64,000 nt of DNA from an uncultured bacterium. GTDB lineage: Bacteria; Patescibacteriota; Minisyncoccia; UBA6257; 2-01-FULL-56-20. The notes under the pieces were generated by a model. It was not told the origin of the DNA and did not search any database. It saw nothing but the letters and a program-made list of their open reading frames with translations. The stretch covers positions 1 through 64,000 of the forward strand of contig CAWJQC010000004.1 of the NCBI GenBank assembly GCA_963844965.1, read 5' to 3'. Positions 1 to 51,562 of the stretch are shown in pieces; the first letter of the stretch is position 1, and the number at the start of each line of letters is the position of its first letter. The translations under genes and the position numbers were made by a program.

Positions 1-3000
1 TATAGGCGGCGGCAGCAAAAGCTGCCAGTCCGCTCGGCAGTGAATTCGGATTTGTCGTCCACGCGCCGGTGCTGGAGGTGTTGATTTGGGCATAGAGAAC
101 CGTATGGTGCCTCCGTTACCGTTGCCTGTATTTGCGGTGCCGCCGAGATTGTAGATATAGCCATTCCAGACGACAGCCGAGTTGTACTCCAGCGCCGTAG
201 GCAGGAATTGGGATTTTTATACCACGTGCCGGTGCTTGAAGCGTTTATCTGAGCATAAAACACTGGAGGTGTTAACGCCGACTCCATTATCCTCGCCTCC
301 GATTGAATATATGTATCCGTTATAGGCAACGGCAGCCGTGTTATAAATAAGTGAAGCGGGCATATTGTTCGGATTCGTTTTCCACACGCCTATGGTGCCA
401 TTGGAGTTTATCGGAGCATAGTAAACATTATTGGTGTCCCCACCTAACGTATAAATATATCCGTTGTAAACGACGGCGGAGTAATGATTAAGCGCAACGG
501 GCAGCGAATTTGGTCGTCTGCCACGCCTGCACGATTGGCGACGCGTTGATGTGCGACGGAATCGTATTGAAACCGCTCACGGTCGCCGAGGAATCACTCA
601 ACTGCTGTTCCGCTCCGCCGAATGTGAAGGAAGAAGTCGCGTAATGCTGGGAACTCGTTGCCAGGAAATGTCCCAAACCGTCACTGAAGGCGGTACCGGA
701 TATGGCGAGGGTTGTTGAGGAATTGCCGGCGTTGCTCACATAGTGGATTTGGTTCGTGGAGCTGGTGTTCTGGCCGACGAGGAGCGTGCCGTAGGTTGAG
801 GACGCGGGCGAAACGTTAAAGCCCGTGAGGACGACAACGTCCACGTTGGAGGAAGTTGAGTTAGTGACACTGGATGTCGCACCCTCCTTGTCCACCGCCA
901 CGGCGTAAGCCACCCAATCCTGCGTGGGATAACTTGAGGTCGGCGATTGGCTGCCCGTGGAATCGGCGAAGTAGTAAAGTGCAACGGTATCGGTTTCGTT
1001 GTAATTCGTGCCGCTCACACAGGAACCAGTGGAAGAGACGACTCCGAGGTAGCACCAGCGGTTGTCGGTCGTGGGATTGGCTGTTTCACAAGTGGAAGAA
1101 GCGCCGGTGCGGAAAGCGGTGGAAGTAACGTGATAAATGTCCGTGTAGCCGTTCAGGTCCTGCACTGTGTAGTTTATCGTGAAGGTCGTCGTGGCGTTCA
1201 CGGTCAAGTTCAGATTGCTGTTGTTGTTAAGTTTCACAGCGGAGATAGTCGGTGTGTAATTGTGGTAAACATTCAACGCGATGCATGAAGTATATAGTCC
1301 GATGTCCTCTACGGTTGAAGTAGCGTGCCTCCGGTGCTCTTGCCGCCGACCATGTAGAGATAACCGTTCGCGATAGCAACCCTGCTGGTAGAGAGGAAGA
1401 GGCGTTGACGAGGCGGTGAGCCAGCTTGAGAGAGTGCCCGTGCCCTGATACCAGTACGTGCCCGTGGGAGTAGTTAATTGTTGGGCATAAAGAACGGTCG
1501 TGGTCACCCCTCCGTAGGCGGCGGTTGACGAACCGCCGGTAACGTAAATGAAGTTGTTGTAGCCCTCAACGTCCGGCTGGATGATGGGGGCGGGAAGTGC
1601 CGTGGCGGTCGTCCAGGAAGCGACCGAGCCGTCGGAGTTGAGATAGGCCATGTTCACGGTGGTCGTAATCGAGGAAAGCGAAGTGCCGGTGCTGCCTCCT
1701 ATGTTATAGATGACGTTATTGAGGATGGTTCCGTTCTGTTTTGTCATGGCAGCCGGAAGGCCTGGGTTGAGCTCCAGTTGGCTATGGTTCCCGTGGAACT
1801 TATGAGACCGTAGAGAACGGAAGTTGTGGCATTGCTCGTGTCATCGCCGCCTACGACATAGACATAGCCGGTATTAGGGTTAACTCCCGCGAAAGCGTTG
1901 TTGCGGTTTGCGGGAAGCTGGGCGGAGACGCTCGTGCTCCAGGAGCGAGAGTGCCGTTTGAGGCGATGGTTGACTGCGCGACCTGCGTGCTCGCCGCGCT
2001 TACCGTAGTTCCGCCGCCCACGACGTACATTATGGTAGTGCCGCCGGAGTTCGTGTAAGCGAAGGCCTGGTGCTGGACGCTGGCGGAGGGAAGCGCGGTC
2101 GTATTCCCTGAGCCGGTAGTTGTCCCGTTTGAGCCGACCGAGAAGTAACTCACTGTCGTCGTGCCGTTCGTACCGTCCGATGTTCCGCCTATGGAATAAA
2201 GATAGTTGTTGGAGAAGACGGCCTGGTTCAGGGAAATGGAGGTTGAAACCGCTCCCTGGGTCACCCAGCCCTCGGCGGCGGTCATACCCTGCTGGTTTAT
2301 CTGGGAGTAGAAAACTGTGGTCGTGGCGACGCTTATAGTACTCGTTCCTCCGGTCGTGTATATATAACCATTGGAGACAACCGCGGAGAGTTCGTCAAGT
2401 GGGCTCGGAAGAGCGGTGGCGGCGGTGCTCCAGGAGCCGACCGTGCCACTCGCCTGAAGCGGGGCATAGAAAATTGTGGTAGTAGCGCTGGAAATTGTGC
2501 TGCTTCCTCCCACCGTGTAGATGTATCCGTTATAGGCGACCGCGGAGTGCAGCATAAGCGGGCTCGGCAAGGAATTGGAGTTCAAGCTCCATGTTCCCAC
2601 CGTGCCGCTCTGATTTATCTTGGCGAAGAAAACGGAAGTGGTGGGGACGCCGGAAGTGGTCGTGGCTCGCCAGTCGTATAGATGTATCCGTTATAGGCGA
2701 CGGCGGAATGGAACATAAGCGGGCTCGGCAAGGAATTGGAATTCAGTGTCCACGTTCCTACGGTGCCACTGGAGTTTATCTGGGCGTAGAAAACAGAGGT
2801 GGTGGCGGGAGCGCCGGCGGCCGTGTTCGTGGCACCGCCGATCGCATAAAGATAACCGTTATAGGCGACAGCGGAAAGTTCGTTAAGAGGGCTAGACAAG
2901 GAACTGGAATTCAGGGTCCACGTTCCCACGGTGCCGTCCTGATTTATCTTGGCGAAGAAAACGGAAGTGGTGGCAGGAACGTTGGCGGCCGTGGTCGTGG

Positions 3001-6000
3001 CGCCGCCAATCGTATAGATGTATCCGTTATAGGCGACCGCGGAATGGTTGGCGATACCGCTCAGAAGTTTATTGGAGTTCGTAGACCACGCTCCCACCGC
3101 GCCGTTGGAACTTATCTGTGCATAGAAAACGGAGGAAGTAGCCGGAGTTGTGGCGGGAGCGCCGGTGGTTGATGTGGCTCCTCCCGTCGTGTAGATGTAG
3201 CCGTTGTAGACGACGGCGGAATGCCCGTAAAGAGCCGCAGTTGCGGGCAGGGAGGCCGCGTTCGTCGCCCACGTGTTGTCCACGCGCGTGAGGGTGCTTG
3301 AGCCATATAGGCCCGAGTTGTCGGGGTCATAGGCCTGCGCGCCCCACCAGTATGTGCCGGCTGTCAAGGTGTACTGAAAAATGCCGCTTGTTCCCGTCGC
3401 CGAAGTGGCGGAATAGGCCGTGCTGTTACTGGAACCGGAGGAAGCGTTCTGCCCGCTCCAGTTGGTCTGGCTTGAGGGCTCGGTGCTTGAAGTTACAACA
3501 TCCGTACACGCCTCGTTCTGGTAGAGAACCCACTTGTACTGCACGTACTGGTTAGAGGTTGATGTCAAAGTCGCCGTCATTTTGAATGTCGTGGAAGCGG
3601 TGTCAACTGTCGTCGTCGCGGCCACCGGAAAATTCAGTATCGGCCGCCGCGGCTGCGGCAGGGAAAGCGAAAGCGCGGGGTAGACGTTGTAAGAGTCAAA
3701 CGCAACAAAGCTCGCGCTCGTTGCCTCCTGAAGCCGGAAGTAGTAGGTTCCGTTGTTACCGTAGACATCCTGCGGACCAGCGCGGATGGCGTATTCCACT
3801 TCCGTCCAGGTAGAGGTCGGACTGCTGTAGGAAAAACCTATATTGACGAGTCCCGTCGTGCTTGAGGACTGCTTTATTTGGCCGGAAGTGGAAGCATTGG
3901 CGTCCGCGGTAAGCTGGGCGGTCGTGGAAGCGCCATCCGTAAAATTCGTTGAGGAGGCGATAAGGAAAAGTTGGCTGGAAAAAGTGGAGGTTGTGGGGAC
4001 CAGTGTCCAGGAACCGGAAGTCGCGTTGTATTGGTACTGAAGCTGGAGTTTGGGCTGGGTCGTTGTGGCGCGGGTGTTCGTAACCTCAATGCGCAGACGG
4101 TAAACGTTGGCCGTTGAGGTTGCGCTGCCCGTAGCGTTCTCCGCCGCCGTCTGCCAGACGGAGCTGGTTTCCGAGCCGGTATCGTTCCGCCAGCGGTAGC
4201 GCGTCTGCGTAAGATTGGGGGCGGCAGTGTAGGTAATGACGATGATACCCTTTGTGCCGTTGCCGCCGGCATTGGCTCTTCCTCCTCCTCCTCCGGCGGC
4301 GCCGGTAGGCGCCGCCGTTACTACCTGCCACGTTGCTGTTCGCTCCTCCTCCTCCTCCTCCGGCGCCGCCCGTCTCGTTGTTATTGGGAGAGGTTGCCGT
4401 CCAGTCCGTGTGCGTGCCGCCGACGCTTCCCGCCGCTCCTCCGAGCGCGCCGCAACCGCCGTTTCCGCCACGGCTGCTGGGGGTTGAACTCCCGACGCCG
4501 CAGTAGCTGGCAGCGCCTCCGCCCCCGCCGCCGACTGAAGTGGCGTTTGATCCGGCGCCACCGCCGTATAATATACTTCCGATGGAGCTTATTGTCGCTC
4601 CTCCCGCGCCTCCGGCTCTTTTGCTGTCGGTAGTGCTTGCCGCGCCGAATCCTCCCGCAGCGCACATCGAGGCACCGGTGCCTCCGCATGTCGTAGTGCT
4701 TACAGAAGCGCCGAACATCGTAGCGGTGCCGGTAGTCGCTGGCGTGGTGGAAGCGCCCAAGCCAACGTCGCCTACCTTAATACTTACGGAGGAACCGGCG
4801 ACGAGAGAGGTGCTGCCGTTTGCTATTTCAGCGTAGGCGGCGCCGCCTCCTCCTGCGCCGTAGCGGCCGCTACTAGCGCTTGTTGCTTTGGAGGCGCCGC
4901 CGCCGCCGCCGATGCCCTCAATCGTGTTTGAAGCAAGGTTCCAGTCGGCGGGCACTATCCAGCTCGTAACGGCGGTAGAGGTCACAAAAACGACCGTGTT
5001 CGCCGTGCCGGCGTCCGCCGCTATCTGCCACTGCCTCGTTTCTATAGGACTTATAAGACCTATAGGACTTATAGGAGCCGCGGTGAGCGGGCCCAGGAGA
5101 TAGAACTCCGGGCTCACGTTCGGCGCCTGGAATTCGTACCAAAGCGTGTGACTCTCGCCGGCCCGCCAGTTGACCTGCCAGGAAATATTTTGCGTGTCCG
5201 AACCGCAATTCACGAGACAAGTACTGCCGGACACGAGTACCCGTGACCTGCGACAGAAAACCGTTATCCTGCGATGCGTTGCCCGTTCCTTGCGTAGTGC
5301 CATCCATTCCCTGTTCCGCAACCTGGAAACCTTTCGGGACGGTTTCCGTGACCGTTCCGGAGAAATCCGACTGCGCGGCCGCCTTGATCTCCATCCTGTA
5401 GAACGCGGGCGGGTAAATTCTCGTGCGACCGATACGCTCCACGTTCCACAGCGGCGAATCCTCAACCGTGAAGCTGTCGCTCGTCGTTCGTTCGCCGTTC
5501 GCCGTCGTCGCCGTGAGCGTTACATTATAAGTGCCGGTCGCGTCCGGCTTGAAGGTCGCGTAGTAGTCGGGGGCGTTGGTGACGGTGGACGCGCCGCACT
5601 CGGAACTGCGCGTGATGGTGCCGTCTTCGGTGCTCATGACCGCGACGCCTCCGCTTGGCAGACCTGCCTGCGCAGGCAGGCTTATCGTGATATCGGCCTC
5701 GGCGTCGCAAATCGTGTGCCCCATGTCGTCCAAAACCGAAAATCCGATTCCCGCCTCGTCGCCGTCGCTCAAACTGTAAACCGTTTTATTGAAATTCAGA
5801 GCGATGACGCCCCAACTGAAGTCGCTCTGCGAGACATATACAGTGCCGTCCTTGACTATGAAAACCTTCACGGTGTAGCGGCCGGGGCGGAAGGAACTCC
5901 TTTTCGGGAAAGTGAACGTCAAACTGCTTCCGTTTTCCGTTGCCGAAGGCGAAATGTCCGGCATGAAATTCCCGTCCGGGCCGAAAACCTGAATGGCGTA

Positions 6001-10199: not shown

Positions 10200-10640
10200 A
10201 TTCTATAACATAATCGCAAGCGGGTCTAATAACACCTTGCCAGGTCGCCTGCCTGCCGGTTTACCCGCCGAAGGAGGACAGGCAGGTCTAACGGCCCACG
10301 CACCAAAACAAAGTTTGGTACGGGGTAAATAGGACATCGGCCGGCGCGAAGTCCCGCATAAAGCTGCGGGGTCGTCTAACTTGCCCCGCCGCACTTTAAA
10401 AAATCAAAAATAAATTTCTTGCCAGTGCTGCCGGGTCGTCTAATGGTAGGACATCGGCCTTTGGAGCCGAGTATCTTGGTCCGACTCCAAGCCCGGCAGC
10501 ACTGGCCGGAAAAGTGCGGCGGGGTGAAGTAGGACACGGGCCTTTGGAGCCCGGTATGAAGGTTCGATTCCTTCCCCCTCAGCACGAGCCACCGCAGTAT
10601 AATCCGACCCTACTCGCCATAGGTCGAGGAAGGCCGGATA
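10200..10640 (+). repeat. Cluster of tRNA-like repeats and pseudo-tRNAs; GTAGGACA(T/C)(C/G)GGCC occurs three times, gtcgtctaa twice, plus a P1/P2 palindrome
   Basis: Recurrent tRNA D-arm and anticodon-arm-like segments; only one unit folds into a complete cloverleaf. Confidence 0.5.
10429..10499 (+). tRNA. tRNA-Gln (anticodon TTG), no encoded CCA
   Basis: Acceptor tgccggg/cccggca, 3-bp D stem gtc/gac, anticodon stem tcggc/gccga with loop ctttgga, T arm cttgg-tccgact-ccaag; unusual C55 in the T loop. Confidence 0.5.
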
Positions 10641-24622: not shown

Positions 24623-24660
24623 CTTAACAGGAGTGGACGATCTTCGAACGATGCTATCCC

Positions 24661-24993: not shown

Positions 24994-25099
24994 CTAACCG
25001 AAGCAAGCAAGGCCCTGTGTATGCGGGCCTCTTTTATTTCGTTTTTGTGCGGGGTATTGGACCAGGTTCGAACCTATTTTAAGTCCATAGTTTGACAGG

Positions 25100-25273
25100 G
25101 TCGGTCATTATTTCAACTTCTTTGCGTAATACCAGTTGTGCACACGCGCGGCGACATATCCAATCCAGATACCGCAGATAACTGAGAAAATATCGTGGAA
25201 TGTGGCGGCGGAGGCAAGGAAGTAACCGACAGCCAATATAACAAGGGTTACGGCGATAGTCCCAATATAATAT
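25100..25273 (-). CDS. Small hydrophobic protein (57 aa, one or two TM)
   Basis: MKKYYIGTIAVTLVILAVGYFLASAATFHDIFSVICGIWIGYVAARVHNWYYAKKLK; not in the ORF track. Confidence 0.3.
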
Positions 25274-25369
25274 TTTTTCATATTTTGTATTTAGGTCTTT
25301 ATGGCCCTTAGAATCAAATCAAATTTGAAACTATTTCGTGCGGAAAATACGTTTTATAGATGCCCTAGG

Positions 25370-25522
25370 AATCTCGAGTAGAATGCTATAAATATTAGGA
25401 CAATTCCCACATTCACAGCTAGCCGTTCCCAAAAGAGGTTCCTGAAGAATAGGATATCCACGCCGATTATGATGGCTACCATCAGCACAACGAAGACCGC
25501 TGCGACATATGAGGAGTTCATG
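25370..25522 (-). CDS. Small hydrophobic protein (about 50 aa)
   Basis: MNSSYVAAVFVVLMVAIIIGVDILFFRNLFWERLAVNVGIVLIFIAFYSRFLGHL; not in the ORF track. Confidence 0.3.
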
Positions 25523-25607
25523 ACTTAATTATACTCCTATTTAAATAGATTCGCTCTAAGGTTCGAACCTATTTTACCCAATTAAAATCTATACTTTTTG
25601 TCTTTGT

Positions 25608-25688
25608 GCGCGGGAGAGGAGTCGAACCTCCATGCCTTGCGGCGCTACCACCTCAAGGTAGTGCGTCTGCCAATTTCGCCACCCGCGC
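25608..25688 (-). tRNA. tRNA-Leu (anticodon GAG), long variable arm
   Basis: Acceptor gcgcggg/cccgcgc, D arm gcg-aaattggcaga-cgc, anticodon ctacc-ttgaggt-ggtag, T arm ggagg-ttcgact-cctct. Confidence 0.75.
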
Positions 25689-25829
25689 AGATACTAACAA
25701 TTATCCTAAATTTATAAAAAAATGCAACAAACAAATCTGTAATCCGTCGCATGCGTTTTTGACTTTATAGGCCGATATTTATAAAATTACATCAGCCATC
25801 CACCATGGACGTTTGAAGGATGCCAAAAC

Positions 25830-26468
25830 ATGAACAAGAAAAATGAAATCCGGGGAATCGTGTTTGATCTTGGCGGTGTTTTGGTCCGGAGCTTCGAGTT
25901 TAATTTCTATAAAGTCGCCGGACGAAAAATTGGGCTGTCTCCTTCTACAATTGCAAAGATAGCGGAAAGCGAATGGGCAACGCTTGAGGTGGGAAAAGAA
26001 ACAAACAGCGAGCTGTGGCATCGGATCGCAAAAAAGCTTGGGAATCCAGGCCTCGGCAACGTACTGGCCTCGTTGTGGCTCAGACACTATAAACGCGATG
26101 CGAAGATCAAAAAAGCAGTCCTCGAAATAGTGAAGCGTCTACACCATAAGTACAAAATGGGCGTGATCTCAAACACACAAAGAGAGCACAGTATTGTCGA
26201 CAGGAAAAGGGGGCTTTTTAAACATTTCGATGTCGTACTCCTCTCGAACGAAATCGGCTTAAGAAAACCGCAGCATGAAATTTTCGCGCTCGCATCTGAG
26301 AAGTTGCGGGTTCCGCCTCAAAATCTGCTTTTTATCGATGACGATAGCCGATGGACGACGACCGCAAAACGATACGGGTGGAAGGCTTTGCGATTCATTT
26401 CCGCCCGCCAACTCAAAAAATCGCTCAAACGACTGGGAATCCGAACGAATCGTCGGTCGAAATCCTAA
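25830..26468 (+). CDS. HAD-superfamily hydrolase (subfamily IA-like)
   Basis: IRGIVFDLGGVLV motif I with downstream HAD motifs. Confidence 0.8.
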   Translation: MNKKNEIRGIVFDLGGVLVRSFEFNFYKVAGRKIGLSPSTIAKIAESEWATLEVGKETNSELWHRIAKKLGNPGLGNVLASLWLRHYKRDAKIKKAVLEIVKRLHHKYKMGVISNTQREHSIVDRKRGLFKHFDVVLLSNEIGLRKPQHEIFALASEKLRVPPQNLLFIDDDSRWTTTAKRYGWKALRFISARQLKKSLKRLGIRTNRRSKS

Positions 26469-31762: not shown

Positions 31763-32340
31763 TTGCGTGGGCAGTCGTGAATTTTACGCGGAAATGAACT
31801 TCCGCGCCGATCTGCGTTATGTCTGCGCTTGTCTGCGGTTGAACTTCGCCCGATATCTGAAAAAGAGCTTTTTAGTTGTCCCAACCTATCATGAAACACG
31901 CAACCTGAAACATGGAACATTACAAAATGTTTCATGCTTCATGTTTTATACTTCGTGCTTCACGTCGACTAACTATTTGTTAATAGTTTAATTGATCCAC
32001 GGGCAGCTTCCGCTACTCGTGCCTTGTTACGACTTATCCCATGTCACCGAGCTTAAGCTAAATCGCCTGAGGCGATCTTCACCTACTCCCGGCTCCCTTG
32101 GATTGACGGGCAGTGAGTACAGGACTCGAGAACGTATTCACCGCAACATAGCTGATTTGCGATTACTAGCGATTCCAGCTTCATGAGGGCAGGTTGCAGC
32201 CCTCAATCCGAACTGAGACCGGGTTTGATGGGATTAGCTCCGCCTTGCGACTTCGCAACCCATTGTCCCGGCCATTGTAGCACGAGTGTAGCCCAGGGCA
32301 TCAGAGGGCCATGCTGATTTGACGTCATCCCCTCCTTCCT

Positions 32341-32439
32341 CCCCGCTCAGAAACCACGAGACATGAGACACACGTCACGACTCACAAATTTATTGTGCAT
32401 CGTGCTACGTGTATCGTGCATCATGAACTCTGAGCGGGG
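32341..32439 (-). other. 16S intervening sequence 1: about 100-nt hairpin insertion closed by an 11-bp stem (ccccgctcaga/tctgagcgggg) in the helix 39/40 region
   Basis: Sequence between the conserved 1100 and 1190 blocks replaced by a self-complementary insert. Confidence 0.7.
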
Positions 32440-32511
32440 CAGTTTCGCGTGACACTTGTAACACACGATAGGGGTTGCGCTCGTTACCCCACTTAAGGGA
32501 ACACTTCAAAG

Positions 32512-32542
<31 letters not shown>

Positions 32543-32669
32543 ACGTGACGTCCTTGAGAGAGGGCCCGCCTTTCGGCAAGCTTTCGTCACGAATTTCAAG
32601 CCCTGGTAAGGTTCCTCGCTTACTGTCGAATTAAACCTCATGCTCCACCGCTTGTGCGAGTCCCCGTCT

Positions 32670-32701
<32 letters not shown>

Positions 32702-33161
32702 TCCCAGGCGGCCGACTTAACGCGTTAGCTCCGCCACTCCGAGGGTCGATACTCGAAACAGCAAGTCGGCATCGTTTAGGGCGTGGACTACAAGGGTATC
32801 TAATCCTTTTTGCTCCCCACGCTTTCGCGTCTCAGAGTCAGGAAGGTCCCAGTGCCATGCCTTCGCCTTTGGTGTTCCGCACGATATCAACGGATTTCAC
32901 CCCTACACCGTGCGTTCCAGGCACCTCTAACCTCCTCTAGTTTCGCCGTATCTCCTGCACTTCCACCGTTAGGCGGTGGGATTTAACAGAAGACGCACGA
33001 AACCTCCTACACGCTCTTTACGCCCAATAAATCCGGATAACGCTCGAGGTCTACGTATTACCGCGGGTGCTGGCACGTAGTTACCAACCTCTTTCCGTAT
33101 GGTACGGTCACCCAGCACTTTTGGAACGAACTTTTCTAATTTGCTCAAATTTTTGGAGGTA

Positions 33162-33190
33162 TTGACAACAGCAATCACTTCTGCTATAAT
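33162..33190 (+). promoter_or_regulatory. Perfect consensus sigma70 promoter (TTGACA-17-TATAAT) inside IVS-2, oriented antisense to the rRNA
   Basis: ttgacaacagcaatcacttctgctataat. Confidence 0.6.
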
Positions 33191-33269
33191 GCCCATAGCA
33201 CATTGGGAGACCAACGTGCCGCACGTCGGGCCTCAGCCCTTGTGCAATTCCCAAAAGGAGAATTGATTT

Positions 33270-33461
33270 ATGCGTGCCAAATTCCCGTCACAAGTCACGG
33301 ATCGAATACTGGAAGCAGCCAAGAAAGAGTACTCCTTCCAGATCAATCATGCGGAATTAGGGCGGCGGCTGTTTACGCGCAAGCACTGTGGCACGAGAAT
33401 GGTTCAGGTAAAAGTCTTTCTGCAAGGAAGACAACAACCTGCCATACTCGGAAAACAATAA
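33270..33461 (+). CDS. 63-aa ORF inside 16S IVS-2, antisense to the rRNA (MRAKFPSQVTDRILEAAKKEYSFQINHAELGRRLFTRKHCGTRMVQVKVFLQGRQQPAILGKQ); has its own promoter, SD and terminator
   Basis: SD aaaaggagaa 6 nt before ATG; intrinsic terminator ctgccaccagaagctttccggtggcag plus TTTTTT at 33543-33575. Confidence 0.45.
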   Translation: MRAKFPSQVTDRILEAAKKEYSFQINHAELGRRLFTRKHCGTRMVQVKVFLQGRQQPAILGKQ

Positions 33462-33542
33462 CCACAGATGCACGGACGCCGCAGTATGCCCCGTTTGTTT
33501 GCTGGCATATGTCATGACTAACGACTAGCTGCCACCTTTCTA

Positions 33543-33575
33543 CTGCCACCAGAAGCTTTCCGGTGGCAGTTTTTT
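33543..33575 (+). terminator. Rho-independent terminator of the IVS-2 mini-gene
   Basis: 11-bp GC-rich stem followed by a T6 run. Confidence 0.6.
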
Positions 33576-34434
33576 AAATCCAAAAATTTGAGCAAATTAG
33601 TTTTCCCGCCAAAAGTGCTGGGTTCTTCCCATACTACCGCAGTTTACAACCCGAAGGCCTTCTTCCTGCACGCGGCGTCGCTCGATCAGGCTTTCGCCCA
33701 TTGTCGAATATTCTCGGCTACTGCCACCCGTAGGTGTACGAACCGTTTCTCAGTTTCGTCGTTGGGGGTCAGGCTCTCACCTCCCCTACCGGTCATAGCC
33801 TTGGTAGGCCGTTACCCTGCCAACTAGCTGATCGGACCTAGGCCGCTCTTGGAGCGTCTTGCGACTTTGGATGCGAATGGCTTTCGCCCCCGCATCATCA
33901 TCAGGAATTACCCCGCCTTTCGGCGAGCTGTGCCCGTCTCCAAGGTACGTTACCAAGGTGTTACTAACTCGTTCGCCGCTCACTATTTTCCTTGCGGAAA
34001 ATAGTTCGCTCAACTTGCATGCCTTATCCACGCCGCCAGCGTTCATCCTGGACCAGGATCAAATCCTCAGTAAAAATCGCGCATTTATTCAATACGCGAG
34101 ATTGTGCGCCATGCATGACGCCCAAACTCGCGCATCTCACTCGTGCGTGAGTTCATACCGCGATTGATTTATTGATCTCGGTTTATTTCAATTCCAAACC
34201 GAAAAATGAATCTTATTGGGACAACTAAAAAACTCTTTTTTATTTACTTTTCTCATATTAATTTTTCAATCTGCAGTCGGCGCAGTCCTTTACCCCGCAC
34301 ATTACCTTCGGTAATAACGGGGCGAGCAACAAAACATCCCCCCTACACATTCTAAACCTCAGAAGAATGTGTAGGGCGGATGTCTTTAGACACACCATAA
34401 TATTGAGATATCAAACCTATCCGTTTTCCATATT

Positions 34435-46153: not shown

Positions 46154-46340
46154 TCTCTATTATGATAACGCCTGCCGCCCCTCCTCGCCAACTATCTGAA
46201 GTCATCGGCGAAAAATTCATAACCGCAGATTAGCACGGGCGTGGAAAGAAAATACCAGAATACCACGTCGTCTATGGGAAAAATATGGCCGAAAACAAGA
46301 ATTGGAAAGATATATTTTCCGGGTGACCAGGACCCCGTAA

Positions 46341-47460
46341 TTTAGACACAAAGGTCGAAACAAACTACCATTGTGTCATGAGCAACAAAAAAGGGCATCG
46401 GATTGCAAAGGAAGTGAAGGCGGACATCCTCCGCCGCGTGAAGGAAGAAGGCGTTTCGGTGGCCCAAGCCGCGAAGGACCACGGCTTGCACGAGTCCACC
46501 ATCTATAACTGGCTCGGAGCCGGAGCGGCAGGCGCTCCCTCGTGGAGCGAGTTCTCCCGCCTGCAGAAGCAGAACCGCGAGCTCTTTGAGGTGGTGGGCG
46601 AGCTCACCGTGAAGCTCTCTCAGGCCCAAAAAAAGAGTTGACGGAGAAACGGGACAAGTCGGCCCTGGCCAGGGCCATGGGCGTCTCACGGGCATCGCTC
46701 TACTACGTTCCGAAACAGTACGCGAAGGATTGGGCATTCAAGATCCTGATCGAGGAAGAGCTGCGGCGCCATTCCTCGTACGGCTCGCGGCGCCTGGCGC
46801 AAGCCCTCCACGCGAACCGCAAACGGACCAGGCGTGTGATGAAGCTCTTTGGCATCAAGCCATACCGGAGGCGGGGCAAGAAATATCGTAAATCAAAGGC
46901 ATCGCGGGCCTTTCCGAACCTCTTACTTGCCATCATGCCCTCGTACGCGAACCACGTCTGGGCAACCGATTTCACGGAGTTCCTGTATCGCGGCAAGAAA
47001 GTGTACGTGTCCACGATACTCGATCTTTTCACGAGACGATTGATGGGCGTCCATGTGGCGTTGCGGAAAGGATCGCCCCTCACGATACAGACCCTGGCCA
47101 ACGCGCTTTTCCACCATCCGCATCCGGTCATCTTCCATTCGGACAACGGCAGCGAGTACAAGGCACGAGCGTTCACCGATACACTGGGGGACTGTGGCAT
47201 CACGATCTCGCGGTCGCGGCCCGGTGCCCCATGGGAAAACGGCTACCAGGAATCGTTCTATGACAAGTTCAAGATTGACCTCGGTGATCCCAACCGGTTC
47301 GGGACCTTCGGCGAGCTCGTGGCGGAGATCTACAGCACCTTGTGGCAGTACAACCACACGCGGATCCACTCCGCCCTCAAGATGCCGCCGTCCGTGTTTG
47401 CCGAGAAGATTGCGGCTTAACGAAAAAAAACGGCAAAAAGCCGTCGAATCACTGTCTAAA
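46341..47460 (+). mobile_element. IS3-family insertion sequence (about 1.1 kb); orfA 46378..46641 (HTH) and orfB 46638..47420 (rve integrase/DDE) joined by a programmed -1 frameshift at A AAA AAG (46626-46632); terminal inverted repeats tttagacacaaaggtcgaaac / ccgtcgaatcactgtctaaa
   Basis: OrfB DFTEFLY...HSDNGSEYKARAF...ENGYQESF; slippery heptamer at the orfA end; GC content clearly above the flanks; exact ends uncertain by about 20 bp. Confidence 0.8.
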
Positions 47461-47472
47461 GAAACCTATCCT

Positions 47473-47736
47473 TTACAGGTGTTTATAGCTGCCATCTTCT
47501 GGTGCCCAAGACTCAAACAATTTCTTTAAGTCCTCTATGATTCCCACCTCCCACTCCATAATAACAAGCGCTGCAGTCGTTCCAAAAACGAATATGTGCG
47601 CGATTCCGTCCGAGAGGCCGGATTGCTTGACCACCGCAGCAACCCGATCGGTGATGTTTATAAAATCGTAGTGACCTTTTGTTTTGACGGAAAGGATCAT
47701 CGCCATATTATCTCGAAAGTTGCGGGTGGGGTGCAA
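47473..47736 (-). pseudogene. YjbQ/UPF0047 family gene lacking its C-terminal half, ending 13 nt from the IS3 right end
   Basis: HIFVFGTTAALVIMEWE...EDGSYKHL stops mid-family at the conserved Y.H; the expected remainder is absent on the other side of the IS. Confidence 0.55.
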
Positions 47737-48050
47737 ACGATTCTACCGCAAACTGGTTTTTTTTGCGGTTTTGACATGTCCATGTTTCCCAACTCTATCA
47801 CTTTAATTCTATCAGAACAGAGAAAATTATATGCATCTCGGTCTGTCCGATACTAAAACTAGGTGCGGGGAGTAGTGGACGACGTTAGAACCTGTTTGAT
47901 GGAAAATGCCAGCAAATTCAGTATCCCGAGTCTTGTGAGTTAGGTTCCCCCACCCTATCACCCACCATATCTACTCCGGTGGTTGGACGACATAAGGGCC
48001 TGTAAAAAAACCGAACATTCTTATCGCGATCAGCTTTGAGAAATTAACTT

Positions 48051-49106
48051 CTAGTTCCCCATCTTCGGCCCGCTTACGTCGCCATTGTTATTATATCCAG
48101 ACTTTTCCCACGTGCCTTTGTAATTAATATCATCGGACAACTCAATTTTGGTTATCCATTTTATCCATTTGTATCCCCATTTTTGTTCCGCAACAAGCTG
48201 AAACGGGAAGCCTTTTTCTGCCGGAATGACAACGTTATTCATTTTATAGGCCAAGAGAATATTATTATTTTCAATATAATCCAGGGGCAGTGAGGTGGTA
48301 TAACCATCGCTCGCATAAAATATGACAACTTTTGCTTGTGCTTTAATACCGGCCGATTCCAAAAGGTCTTTGACCAAGACCCCTTCCCATAAAATTTTTG
48401 CAGTCCAGCCCTCGACACAATCAAGCTCCACAACCTTAGAATATTTCTGAAAATTTAGAACTTGATCGTAGGTATAACTTTTTGGAGTCTGGACCAAGCC
48501 AGAGATTTCCAATGAGTAATTATCAATGTCTATATATTGAGTTCCTTTAATCGCGTTATCCTGAATATCGGCAATTGATGATAATTTTTCTCCCTGGTAC
48601 TCCTTAACCTGACTATCTGTTAATTGTTTTGTTGCGTAATCAGACGATAATTTAATTCTGATAAAAGAAATGCTTGCGATTCCGGCCAGCACCAAAAAAA
48701 TTATTAAAAACCAAATTTTGGTTCTCAAACCTAAAAATTTATTTTCAGGAGTTGCGTTGAGTGTTTTTTCGGAAACTTTAATTCGGCCCAAGACGATATT
48801 CATCAATGCCAAAACTACTATAATAATACCCGACCAATCATGTGCAAAATTTATCCAAAATAACGGCAAAGGCGCATAGCCAATTACATGATACAATTCC
48901 AAAAACTTAAAAACGCCCGTAATAACCAGTATTGGAACAAAAAATATCAAAACCAGTCGAACAATTTTTCTTAATGCAATCACGCTTTTATTATATCGTT
49001 TCCATCCGAAGTCAACAAAAGCGAAGAGCGTCAAAAAACCACCCCGTGTGCGGAGCGGCGGAAATTTACTCCAACGGGTGGACGGTGTTAGAATATAAAT
49101 CGCCAA
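48051..49106 (-). CDS. Membrane-anchored molybdopterin-dependent oxidoreductase (sulfite-oxidase fold, MsrP/YedY-like) with N-terminal 4-TM domain; AT-rich relative to neighbours
   Basis: C-terminal SUOX-like domain (...YASDGYTTSLPLDYI..., WGYKWIKW); strong compositional contrast with the flanks. Confidence 0.55.
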   Translation of the reverse strand: MAIYILTPSTRWSKFPPLRTRGGFLTLFAFVDFGWKRYNKSVIALRKIVRLVLIFFVPILVITGVFKFLELYHVIGYAPLPLFWINFAHDWSGIIIVVLALMNIVLGRIKVSEKTLNATPENKFLGLRTKIWFLIIFLVLAGIASISFIRIKLSSDYATKQLTDSQVKEYQGEKLSSIADIQDNAIKGTQYIDIDNYSLEISGLVQTPKSYTYDQVLNFQKYSKVVELDCVEGWTAKILWEGVLVKDLLESAGIKAQAKVVIFYASDGYTTSLPLDYIENNNILLAYKMNNVVIPAEKGFPFQLVAEQKWGYKWIKWITKIELSDDINYKGTWEKSGYNNNGDVSGPKMGN

Positions 49107-49163
49107 AAGTTAGAACCTCAAATTGCTTACCGGATAAGCGTTAACCGAGAAAAATTATCGTAG

Positions 49164-49234
49164 CGGGGGCAGTAGGAATCGAACCCACGTTAGCGGTTTT
49201 GGAGACCGCTGTCCTGCCACTGAACGATGCCCCC
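49164..49234 (-). tRNA. tRNA-Trp (anticodon CCA)
   Basis: Acceptor gggggca/tgccccc, anticodon gcggt-ctccaaa-accgc, T loop ttcgatt. Confidence 0.75.
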
Positions 49235-49635: not shown

Positions 49636-51424
49636 TTAAACGGTCCCTCGGGGTGACGCGCGGAACGCAGCCTCAACATCCAGGTCCTCCCAGCCGGCTT
49701 TCTTCAATTCGCCGCGAATCACGTCGTCCACAAACGCGGCGGCGCGGGCGGCCCTGATATATTCCACGAGCTCCGGATTCTGGGAACCGGCTTGGGTTGA
49801 TTTCACTTCCGCGGCCGGAGAAGCGGCGGTTGCGGCGTCCGCGCTAACTTGCCGCGCGGCTTCAGGGTTCGCCGCTGAAGCCGCTGAATTGTTTTTCTCC
49901 GCTTCTTCCCGCGTCGCCTCATGTTTTATAAGTTCTTTCTCTTCCGTCTCCAGCTTCACTATTTCCTCCTCCTCTTTTTTCATCCGCTTGCGAAGCATGA
50001 CTACGACAAACGCCGCTATTATCAGAACCAACACTCCGCCGCCCGCGATAAGCCACGCGGTGAGTCCGACTCCGCTCAGCCGCTCCTTTATGACATCCCA
50101 TGGCGTATCAAGCGACCCGCCCGCGGCGATAAGCGCCGCGCACTGCTCTATATACGGGTCAGCGTATTTGTTTACGGAGAATTTCGCGTCGGAATTCTCG
50201 GCTATCTTGAATTGCTCCGTCGCTTTCTTGCACTGCTTGGCGTGCAGAAGCGCGAGACCCTGTTCCATTGAATCGGTGAAGCCGCTTGTATCGTTTTTCA
50301 GCGACTGTGCGTCAAGCGCGGCTTTCGCCAGTTCAACCGGAACGGCGGATGCGAAATTATCCCCTAAAATGTCGCTGAGCCCCGATTCAAATGTCACCAA
50401 ACCAATGACCTCTCCGTCAGCTCCGAAGAGCGGCCCTCCGCTTGAACCTTCGGAGATCTTCGCGTCCGATTGCAATATTTTGAAATCCTTATTTTGGGAA
50501 TCTTTGATGGCGGTTATCACTCCCTGTGTGAACGTCGGCTCAAGATAATCTTGCGACCCGATACTGGGCCGTACCCGGAAAGCCAAACACGTAAATTTTC
50601 TGGCCGACAGCGGCCAACGCCGAAGCGCCGAGCTTCATGGCCGCGAGGTTACTTTCGCCAATCTTAAGAATAGCGACGTCCTTGTCGTCAAGGTTGTAGT
50701 TATCATTCACGCTCAAAACCGTTGCCGGAAACGAATCTTTGATAAGTTCGGTGAGTTTTTGTTTCGTTGATGTCGGATTCAGCACGACGACCTCCCGCAA
50801 GATGTCAAAGCGGCTGTTGGCTTCCAGGGCGGATAAAATTTTCTTTCCATATTCTTCTCCCATGCTTTCCGCATCCAGCGAGTCAATCCCTTTATCTTTA
50901 TAATACTTTTCCAAGTCCTGTATTTCATTCGGTTTCAAGGAGAACATTTCTTTGAATATCACCGACGTCATAGCCGCGCCGAGTATCGCCTGCCGCATGG
51001 TCTCTTCCGAAACAACATGGGAGTTTGTGAGGACCAGGCCGGATGGATTCACGACGAAACCGCTGCCCGCGAGATACTGCTCCGTGGAAGTGCCGTTAAC
51101 GGCGCCTGATTTCGGAAACGACACGGCAAACGTTCGGAGGTCAATGCTAAAATCGGGCACCGTTGAGGTTACCAGGAAATGCGTGAGCACCCGAACAATG
51201 GACGGCTTCGTTATGTCCGCCAATTCCTCTTCGCTCATCGCGAGCGGCTGCGGCGTGGGCATGCTCCAAAGATCGGAGAGCGACGCCGTCCCCGATCTCC
51301 CACCGCCGGGCAAACTGCGGAGAGCAACGGCGCCCAAAAACGCCGTGCTCACAAAAAGCGCGACCAAAAACAAAAAGAGCGGTAGCCATATCCGTCCACC
51401 TTCCCTACCGTTGCCGATAAATGG
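49636..51424 (-). CDS. Trypsin-like (S1) serine protease with N-terminal TM anchor, C-terminal TM plus coiled-coil/charged tail; frame-shifted near 50560
   Basis: GSGFVVNPSGLVLTNSHVV (His region) in ORF 50540..51514; GSSGGPLFGADGEVIGLV (Ser region) in ORF 49636..50586. Confidence 0.7.
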
Positions 51425-51562
51425 CATGTATAAATTATAACAAACCCGGAATGAGCCTGGCACTTCACGACAACTTAAACGTGGGTCTGAATTAACTCGT
51501 TCAAATCCAGCCAAAACTTAACCCGTTGCCCTAAACACTTCGTGTCGGGCAGCTAAAACAAA

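Follow-up and report, generated by a model that had tools for sequence, protein, structure and literature searches.

Insertion sequences (ISs) of the IS3 family produce their OrfAB transposase through −1 frameshifting at the heptamer A_AAA_AAG, and tRNA genes are classic integration sites. The locus described here, in a stretch of 64,000 nucleotides (the window; positions 1 to 64,000 of contig CAWJQC010000004.1 from an uncultured bacterium), features both: an IS3-family element abuts a truncated yjbQ gene, and a nearby AT-rich gene for a membrane-anchored molybdoenzyme of the sulfite-oxidase fold (the oxidoreductase gene) lies between a conserved small open reading frame (ORF) and a tRNA-Trp gene. 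An earlier note on this DNA had read the whole as one acquired patch. Our analysis indicates instead that two unrelated events, an IS3 insertion with a later deletion and the import of the oxidoreductase gene, probably occurred downstream of rpmG and tRNA-Trp, where gene content varies. The host genome is that of a Parcubacteria-like member of the Candidate Phyla Radiation (CPR) with a GC content of roughly 51%; the annotations of homologues of the window's genes name Parcubacteria, Patescibacteria and related groups, and the mean GC content of the 64 kb is 50.7%. On the minus strand, the gene order is rpmG (encoding L33), tRNA-Trp, the oxidoreductase gene and the yjbQ fragment, beyond which lie the plus-strand IS, a DHH-family gene, an RNase H-like gene and a PHO4 transporter gene.

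The IS (46324-47477, plus strand, 1,154 bp) is apparently intact and aligns over its full length, at 81% nucleotide identity, with copies in groundwater metagenome contigs. Its ends, at 46324 (TGACC...) and 47477 (...TTTACA), were defined by alignment with two related copies that have different flanks on the same groundwater scaffold, and lie 17 nt to the left and 57 nt to the right of the limits suggested by orfA and orfB. The first of these genes (46378-46641, plus strand) encodes 87 amino acids with an HTH_Tnp_1 domain (E = 5e-10), while orfB (46638-47420, plus strand) is in the −1 frame and encodes an rve DDE domain (E = 9e-21) and an rve_3 match. The slippery heptamer A_AAA_AAG (46629-46635, plus strand), read from the sequence, is in the orfA frame two codons ahead of the orfA stop, and its A-run and G are kept in related elements. 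With the NCBIfam model NF033516 ("IS3 family transposase"), whose cut-off is 160 bits, the fused OrfAB product scored 219.6 bits in an alignment that spans positions 1-362 of the 369 in the profile, and OrfB alone scored 192.6 bits. The domains, the heptamer and this score all agree with the earlier identification of an IS3-family orfA/orfB element with a programmed −1 frameshift site. Downstream of the heptamer, folding predicts a small GGCCC...GGGCC hairpin, with a fold no better than those of shuffled sequences (z = −0.04). Relatives of OrfB number in the thousands in metagenomes, and most of their contigs measure 1.1-1.6 kb, a length that fits a repeated element of this size; groundwater CPR-type contigs seem to be where this sub-lineage circulates. 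A self-BLAST of the IS against the window identified no second copy in the 64 kb.

The left terminal inverted repeat (46324-46348, plus strand; TGACCAGGACCCCGTAATTTAGACA) is common to all related copies, whereas the right one (47453-47477, plus strand; ...TGTCTAAAGAAACCTATCCTTTACA) is more degenerate than those of its relatives, which match the right end of this IS as far as ...CTCCA and diverge thereafter. Compared by eye, the two arms are complementary at 15 of 25 positions here and at 18 of 25 in the relatives, with TG...CA at the ends. An internal GGACCCC block that is kept in both arms of the related copies has gone from the right arm, which may have reduced the mobility of this copy. The earlier note had proposed a check for target-site duplications; the flanks are GGG and GGT, and no clean duplication of 3-5 bp is present. 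A related copy (L010) features a 3-bp TGG/TGG duplication, and the missing duplication here fits a later deletion or rearrangement and is not grounds for exclusion from the IS3 family. A 4-bp GGTG duplication was considered and rejected, as it needs the TG to lie outside the IS and the related copies place it in the IS end. On the scaffold that carries L010 (ANAN16-1...scaffold_176), this copy and a second related IS3 copy in the same orientation (L009) flank a gene for a type IIG (MmeI-like) restriction-modification protein; this arrangement could be a composite transposon, with flanking triplets that do not all match.

Immediately to the right of the IS, positions 47478-47706 on the minus strand hold a 5′ fragment of yjbQ (residues 1-76) that matches only positions 1-61 of 117 in Pfam UPF0047 and positions 3-75 of 132 in TIGR00149, the latter with 50.9 bits, below the cut-off of 67.75. 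An exhaustive HMMER search returned 1,014 relatives, and a word-based search with the fragment returned nothing but the fragment itself. The eight relatives inspected among the best matches are 129-141 amino acids long; the closest homologue (137 amino acids) is 56% identical over residues 2-74. When these eight proteins were aligned to the window by tblastn, seven of the alignments ended at 47479, one base from the IS end and equivalent to residue 74 of the closest homologue, while the eighth ran to 47464, 15 nt into the IS. The truncation of yjbQ beside the IS was therefore located to the exact IS edge, although the 13-nt spacing reported earlier does not exist: the yjbQ frame runs into the right end of the IS through two IS nucleotides and terminates at a stop codon (47473-47475) that is IS sequence. 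The C-terminal half of YjbQ, which had been described as absent beyond the IS, has no tblastn match anywhere in the 64 kb with the eight homologues. In particular, the 170 bp to the left of the IS (46154-46323, apparently the upstream region of the DHH-family gene) contain no yjbQ remnant in any of the three minus-strand frames when compared with UPF0047, nor by tblastn, and splicing this flank onto the fragment added no match. The fragment is almost certainly non-functional.

The oxidoreductase gene (48051-48983, minus strand) encodes a protein of 310 amino acids with a multi-transmembrane region, which makes up its hydrophobic N-terminal half, and a Pfam Oxidored_molyb domain (122.6 bits against a cut-off of 24; E = 2e-35). 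Its start was placed at GTG 48983 by alignment with homologues (P0002), and the ORF start given earlier was over-extended. The domain features a CVEGW-type motif, which in YedY presumably holds the molybdenum-ligand cysteine, and many homologues also match DUF4405 and cytochrome-b families (Ni_hydr_CYTB). The protein scored 66.6 bits against the MsrP equivalog NF003767 (cut-off 207), 68 against SoxC (cut-off 420) and 64 against SorA (cut-off 600). Among solved structures, the SorA sulfite dehydrogenase is the nearest (E = 3.5e-13), ahead of YedY (E = 4e-7). The description of this enzyme as MsrP-like is thus appropriate at the superfamily level, where it denotes the sulfite-oxidase fold, but not as an assignment to MsrP. 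This family is abundant in Parcubacteria and related groups. The closest homologues are 81-83% identical at the amino acid level and 82% identical at the nucleotide level. Their genes have GC contents of 35.5-42.2% and their contigs 36-45%; for the best match, the gene is at 35.5% and the surrounding stretch of its 541-kb contig at 37.6%, and the others lie at 42-45%. Nucleotide homology is limited to 48042-49018, which comprises the gene and about 10-35 nt on each side.

Windowed GC and tetranucleotide analysis, another check put forward in the earlier note, showed that the composition of the locus is not uniform. At 36.7% GC, the oxidoreductase gene lies below all other 933-bp windows (minimum elsewhere 41.4%; z = −3.7), and its segment is among the strongest tetranucleotide outliers. 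Together with its relatives in lower-GC contigs, this substantiates the claim that the gene is compositionally foreign. The IS, which had been described as clearly GC-richer than its surroundings, is so locally (57.2% GC), but it is no outlier for the window as a whole (z = +1.7), where 6.9% of windows are equally GC-rich. The 570 bp between the IS and the oxidoreductase gene include the yjbQ fragment, at 47% GC, and an adjoining intergenic stretch at 43%. The strongest tetranucleotide and GC outlier in the 64 kb is elsewhere, at 2000-5500, where GC content reaches 64% (z up to 4.1).

The earlier note also described imperfect direct repeats that bracket the oxidoreductase gene. Both arms exist, but they are neither target-site duplications nor att scars of an imported segment. 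Arm 1 (47876-47893) lies within a 32-mer (47865-47896) that an unrelated contig (L009) shares without a mismatch and that belongs to a small ORF on the plus strand (47863-47943; VRGVVDDVRTCLMENASKFSIPSLVS followed by a stop codon) that was recognised by a hidden Markov model (HMM) of its family with an E-value of 2.6e-14; the real start of this copy may be GTG 47875. Arm 2 coincides with a degenerate match to the 5′ box of the small ORF (49075-49100, plus strand) that scored 10.4 bits with a position weight matrix (PWM). This is the fourth-best PWM match, and just four of 128,000 positions score at least 3 bits. The family HMM gave no protein-level signal for arm 2, which is at best a decayed copy. 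A further weak, diverged or decayed copy (47980-48039, plus strand; ending in WLDDIRACKKTEHSYRDQL and a stop codon) is convergent with the oxidoreductase gene; it matches arm 1 at 80% of DNA positions and is not significant by either PWM (−6.2 bits) or HMM (E = 47). In contig L055, rpmG and tRNA-Trp are followed by a different gene, of 159 amino acids, and then by the same small ORF, which indicates that the slot between tRNA-Trp and the small ORF varies between related genomes. Elsewhere in the window there is a second, borderline copy at 25051-25092, with weak fragments at 24633-24656 and 25561-25599. Between 24600 and 25700, these copies are interleaved with an ORF of 110 amino acids and two membrane ORFs of about 55 amino acids, and a low-GC stretch (42% in 25001-26000) adjoins tRNA-Leu (25606-25688), a layout that parallels the tRNA-Trp locus.

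The small ORF comprises about 22-32 codons with the consensus (R/G)GVVDDVRT(C/Y)(F/W)...FFIPSLSL..KIN before the stop. Its core 20-mer was found exactly in 52 metagenome contigs (loci L023-L074) and in no viral contigs. Some contigs carry near-identical copies arrayed in the same orientation with gene-sized spacing, at least 11 in one contig and two to four in others. The genes between these copies are unrelated to one another (PgpA, NUDIX, a YcaO-nitroreductase fusion, NYN, MazF and others), and the large genes that flank the small ORFs for the most part occupy the opposite strand. Homology between contigs seldom extends past an element of about 100 nt, and the flanks are unrelated. The element has a clear protein-coding signature. 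Each of 19 distinct copies measures exactly 29 codons, counted from VV as far as a stop codon that varies between TAA, TGA and TAG, and entropies at the three codon positions are 0.56, 0.58 and 1.04. Codon differences of a single nucleotide are synonymous in 823 cases and non-synonymous in 549, compared with 251:1030 and 122:1179 in the shifted frames, and the other five frames are interrupted by stops in nearly all copies. Only 11 of 53 copies have a canonical start codon three codons upstream, and translation may really begin at an invariant GTG that follows GGRGRG. In IMG, one copy has been called as a gene but has no name. The peptide has no match in Pfam or PDB and no relatives in the viral contig collection, and nothing relevant was found in the literature on CPR integrons and RNA motifs.

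Other identities were considered for the 5′ box and its surrounding element. A structured RNA was rejected, as there was no Rfam match at gathering or E-value thresholds and single-sequence folds were no better than shuffles (z from −1.35 to +0.22). The 5′ GGGGAGUAGUGGACGAC and a run of "NYA" codons appear tmRNA-like by eye, but ARAGORN made no tRNA or tmRNA call and the T-arm and acceptor pairings fail. The GTTAGAA core is reminiscent of an integron attC site, yet the copies are direct repeats without an inverted partner and have no integrase nearby. Hexamers and orientation are both inconsistent with a promoter or terminator, the forward-strand coding signature overrules a 3′ untranslated region element of the flanking genes, and a phage element is not compatible with the lack of exact matches or relatives in viral contigs. 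No recombinase recurs among the 129 ORFs that neighbour small-ORF copies, a survey that did not include a window-wide integrase scan.

The two deviations in composition could in principle stem from a single arrival of the IS and the oxidoreductase gene, as parts of a composite or one-ended transposon or of a tRNA-targeted islet. The IS and the gene are less than 600 bp apart and adjoin a tRNA gene, which speaks for such an origin, but we regard it as extremely improbable. Their GC contents deviate in opposite directions (57% and 37%) and are separated by 570 bp of intermediate composition (43-47%), and the IS is present as a single copy in 64 kb, which does not make a composite transposon; it is from these features that we regard the IS and the oxidoreductase gene as independent, and the "one acquired patch" of the earlier note is not sustained. 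Moreover, there is no integrase among the ORFs checked from the DHH gene to tRNA-Trp (46154-49162), the 3′ end of tRNA-Trp is not repeated, as a tRNA-targeted island would need, and homology to the nearest oxidoreductase loci stops about 10-35 nt beyond the gene. Alternatively, the oxidoreductase gene could be native, with a low GC content that reflects the bias of a membrane protein gene. Its family is indeed common in CPR bacteria and its N-terminal half is hydrophobic, but no other window is as low in GC, the one with the PHO4 membrane transporter gene being at about 50%, and the catalytic half of the oxidoreductase gene is likewise AT-rich. In addition, its closest relatives reside in lower-GC contigs, the syntenic contig L055 has a different gene in this slot, and a near-identical strain appears able to dispense with it. 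This strain variant (L022, from run ERR10755942), 99.7% identical, features a TAA nonsense codon at 48464-48465 (CAA to TAA, together with a change of the adjacent base) and, at about 48216, an A-run lengthened by 1 nt, which hints that the gene is dispensable and may be decaying in part of the population. A native origin is accordingly very unlikely. A mis-join at the IS or at the AT-rich segment, with a chimeric truncation and an only seemingly foreign gene, is highly improbable. The IS is multi-copy in these communities and elements of this kind commonly break or mis-join assemblies; in fact, ERR10755942 contig L001 extends from the DHH gene across the IS boundary and ends 36 nt inside the element, which suggests that the IS is repeated in that sample. 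Nevertheless, the DHH-to-IS and tRNA-Trp-to-oxidoreductase junctions are both reproduced in separately assembled short contigs from ERR10755942 at 99.7-99.9% identity (99.7% for the latter), and the reading frame of yjbQ continues cleanly into the end of the IS.

It is also conceivable that small-ORF copies act as recombination anchors and that the oxidoreductase gene was installed between them as a cassette, in an integron-like or homology-facilitated manner. The gene does sit between the diverged copy at 47980 and the degenerate box at 49075, next to the intact copy at 47863, and the same-orientation arrays in other contigs, with gene-sized spacing between unrelated genes, homology limited to the element and a different gene in the tRNA-Trp slot of L055, speak for such a process. 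However, both flanking copies are weak, with no significant HMM match and a PWM score below zero for the copy at 47980, no recombinase recurs among the 129 neighbouring ORFs, the element has no attC-like dyad symmetry by eye, and no such element was found near the closest oxidoreductase loci. The coding signature itself explains the conservation of the element without a function as a DNA site, and we consider anchoring of this kind doubtful. The wider proposal, that the small ORF represents an undescribed CPR-specific family that marks, and perhaps mediates, cassette-like turnover beside tRNA genes, in the manner of an integron-like or homology-anchored exchange that has no linked integrase and with the oxidoreductase gene as one cassette, appears unlikely, and a contribution of the small ORF to gene turnover is hypothetical.

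Under the favoured explanation of two independent events, an IS3-family element would have interrupted yjbQ behind codon 76. The original junction on the left and the 3′ half of the gene, about 190 bp, would then have been lost, likely by a deletion next to the IS or by recombination between it and another copy, which would leave the IS abutting the promoter region of the DHH-family gene without a matching target-site duplication. Separately, the gene for a membrane-anchored molybdoenzyme of the sulfite-oxidase fold would have been acquired from a Patescibacteria lineage of lower GC content, and would have yet to drift to the composition of its host. It occupies the slot between tRNA-Trp and a conserved small-ORF copy, with the small ORF not representing an insertion scar. 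In overall terms, the interpretation in the earlier note retains its IS3 element with frameshift, its yjbQ truncation and its foreign oxidoreductase gene, and loses the single patch, the IS as a compositional outlier and the repeats as scars.

Several points weigh against this explanation. No IS-free or oxidoreductase-free allele was found in a close relative, so the order and mechanism of the events are ones that we infer. In a synteny comparison of the kind suggested in the earlier note, the nearest relatives identified in GTDB genomes through the DHH-family gene are only 50% identical and share no neighbours. The missing half of yjbQ could be present in the genome outside the window, for example as a result of an inversion. 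The GGG and GGT triplets that flank the IS agree at two of three positions and are uninformative. At only about 82% identity, the closest homologues of the oxidoreductase gene leave the donor lineage putative. Finally, positions 47478-48155, which include the right junction of the IS and the junction between the oxidoreductase gene and yjbQ, lie outside the independent-assembly coverage.

Beyond this locus, the window encodes a 16S rRNA gene, an RNase P RNA and several tRNAs. The 16S rRNA gene (31985-34074, minus strand) is 2,090 nt long, whereas the model has 1,533 nt, and therefore contains about 550 nt of insertions; such insertions have been reported for many CPR bacteria. The tRNA-Trp (CCA) gene is present at 49163-49234 on the minus strand, beside the oxidoreductase gene as originally described. 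A trypsin-like serine protease at 49636-51514 (minus strand) is split into two ORFs (50540-51514 and 49636-50586) that overlap by 47 nt, which could represent a frameshift, a pseudogene or a sequencing error. Directly after tRNA-Gln, positions 10515-10582 (plus strand) feature a weak Rfam tRNA match (32.8 bits) and no ARAGORN call.

An IS insertion, a deletion and one laterally acquired accessory gene amount to everyday genome flux; the locus is routine in this respect, and shows such flux at work in small CPR genomes. It also illustrates that short repeats which seem to bracket a foreign gene are not necessarily scars of an insertion, as one arm here is conserved coding sequence. The small ORF merits follow-up, given its coding signature and its presence in dozens of CPR contigs without a match in Pfam, PDB, Rfam or viral sequences. 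Should it turn out to be connected with gene turnover, or with some conserved function of the cell, it would provide a new handle on CPR genome dynamics.

In comparison with known systems, the IS shares with IS911, IS150 and IS3 its size of about 1.15 kb, a helix-turn-helix orfA and a DDE rve orfB in the 0 and −1 frames, A_AAA_AAG at their overlap, imperfect TG...CA inverted repeats and, in a related copy, a 3-bp duplication. It differs in that there is no perfect target-site duplication, the right inverted repeat is degenerate relative to those of its relatives, and the downstream frameshift-stimulating structure is not significant. The yjbQ fragment aligns across residues 1-76 with the N-terminal half of YjbQ/UPF0047 proteins (TIGR00149, "secondary thiamine-phosphate synthase enzyme"), but lacks the C-terminal ~60 residues, falls below the family cut-off and has an IS-derived end.

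The oxidoreductase shares with the MsrP/YedY-MsrQ, SorA and SoxC systems an Oxidored_molyb domain and a membrane, cytochrome-b-like module. In contrast to MsrP/YedY-MsrQ, this module is fused to the N-terminus of the enzyme and is not a separate MsrQ subunit, and the protein scores far below the equivalog cut-offs for MsrP, SoxC and SorA. The small-ORF arrays are comparable to integron cassettes and chromosomal cassette arrays in their same-orientation repeats, their gene-sized spacing and their unrelated, often small accessory genes. They differ from these in having neither attC dyad symmetry (R″/R′ boxes) nor a nearby integrase (IntI), and the repeat itself resembles a translated ORF, mostly on the strand opposite to the flanking genes.

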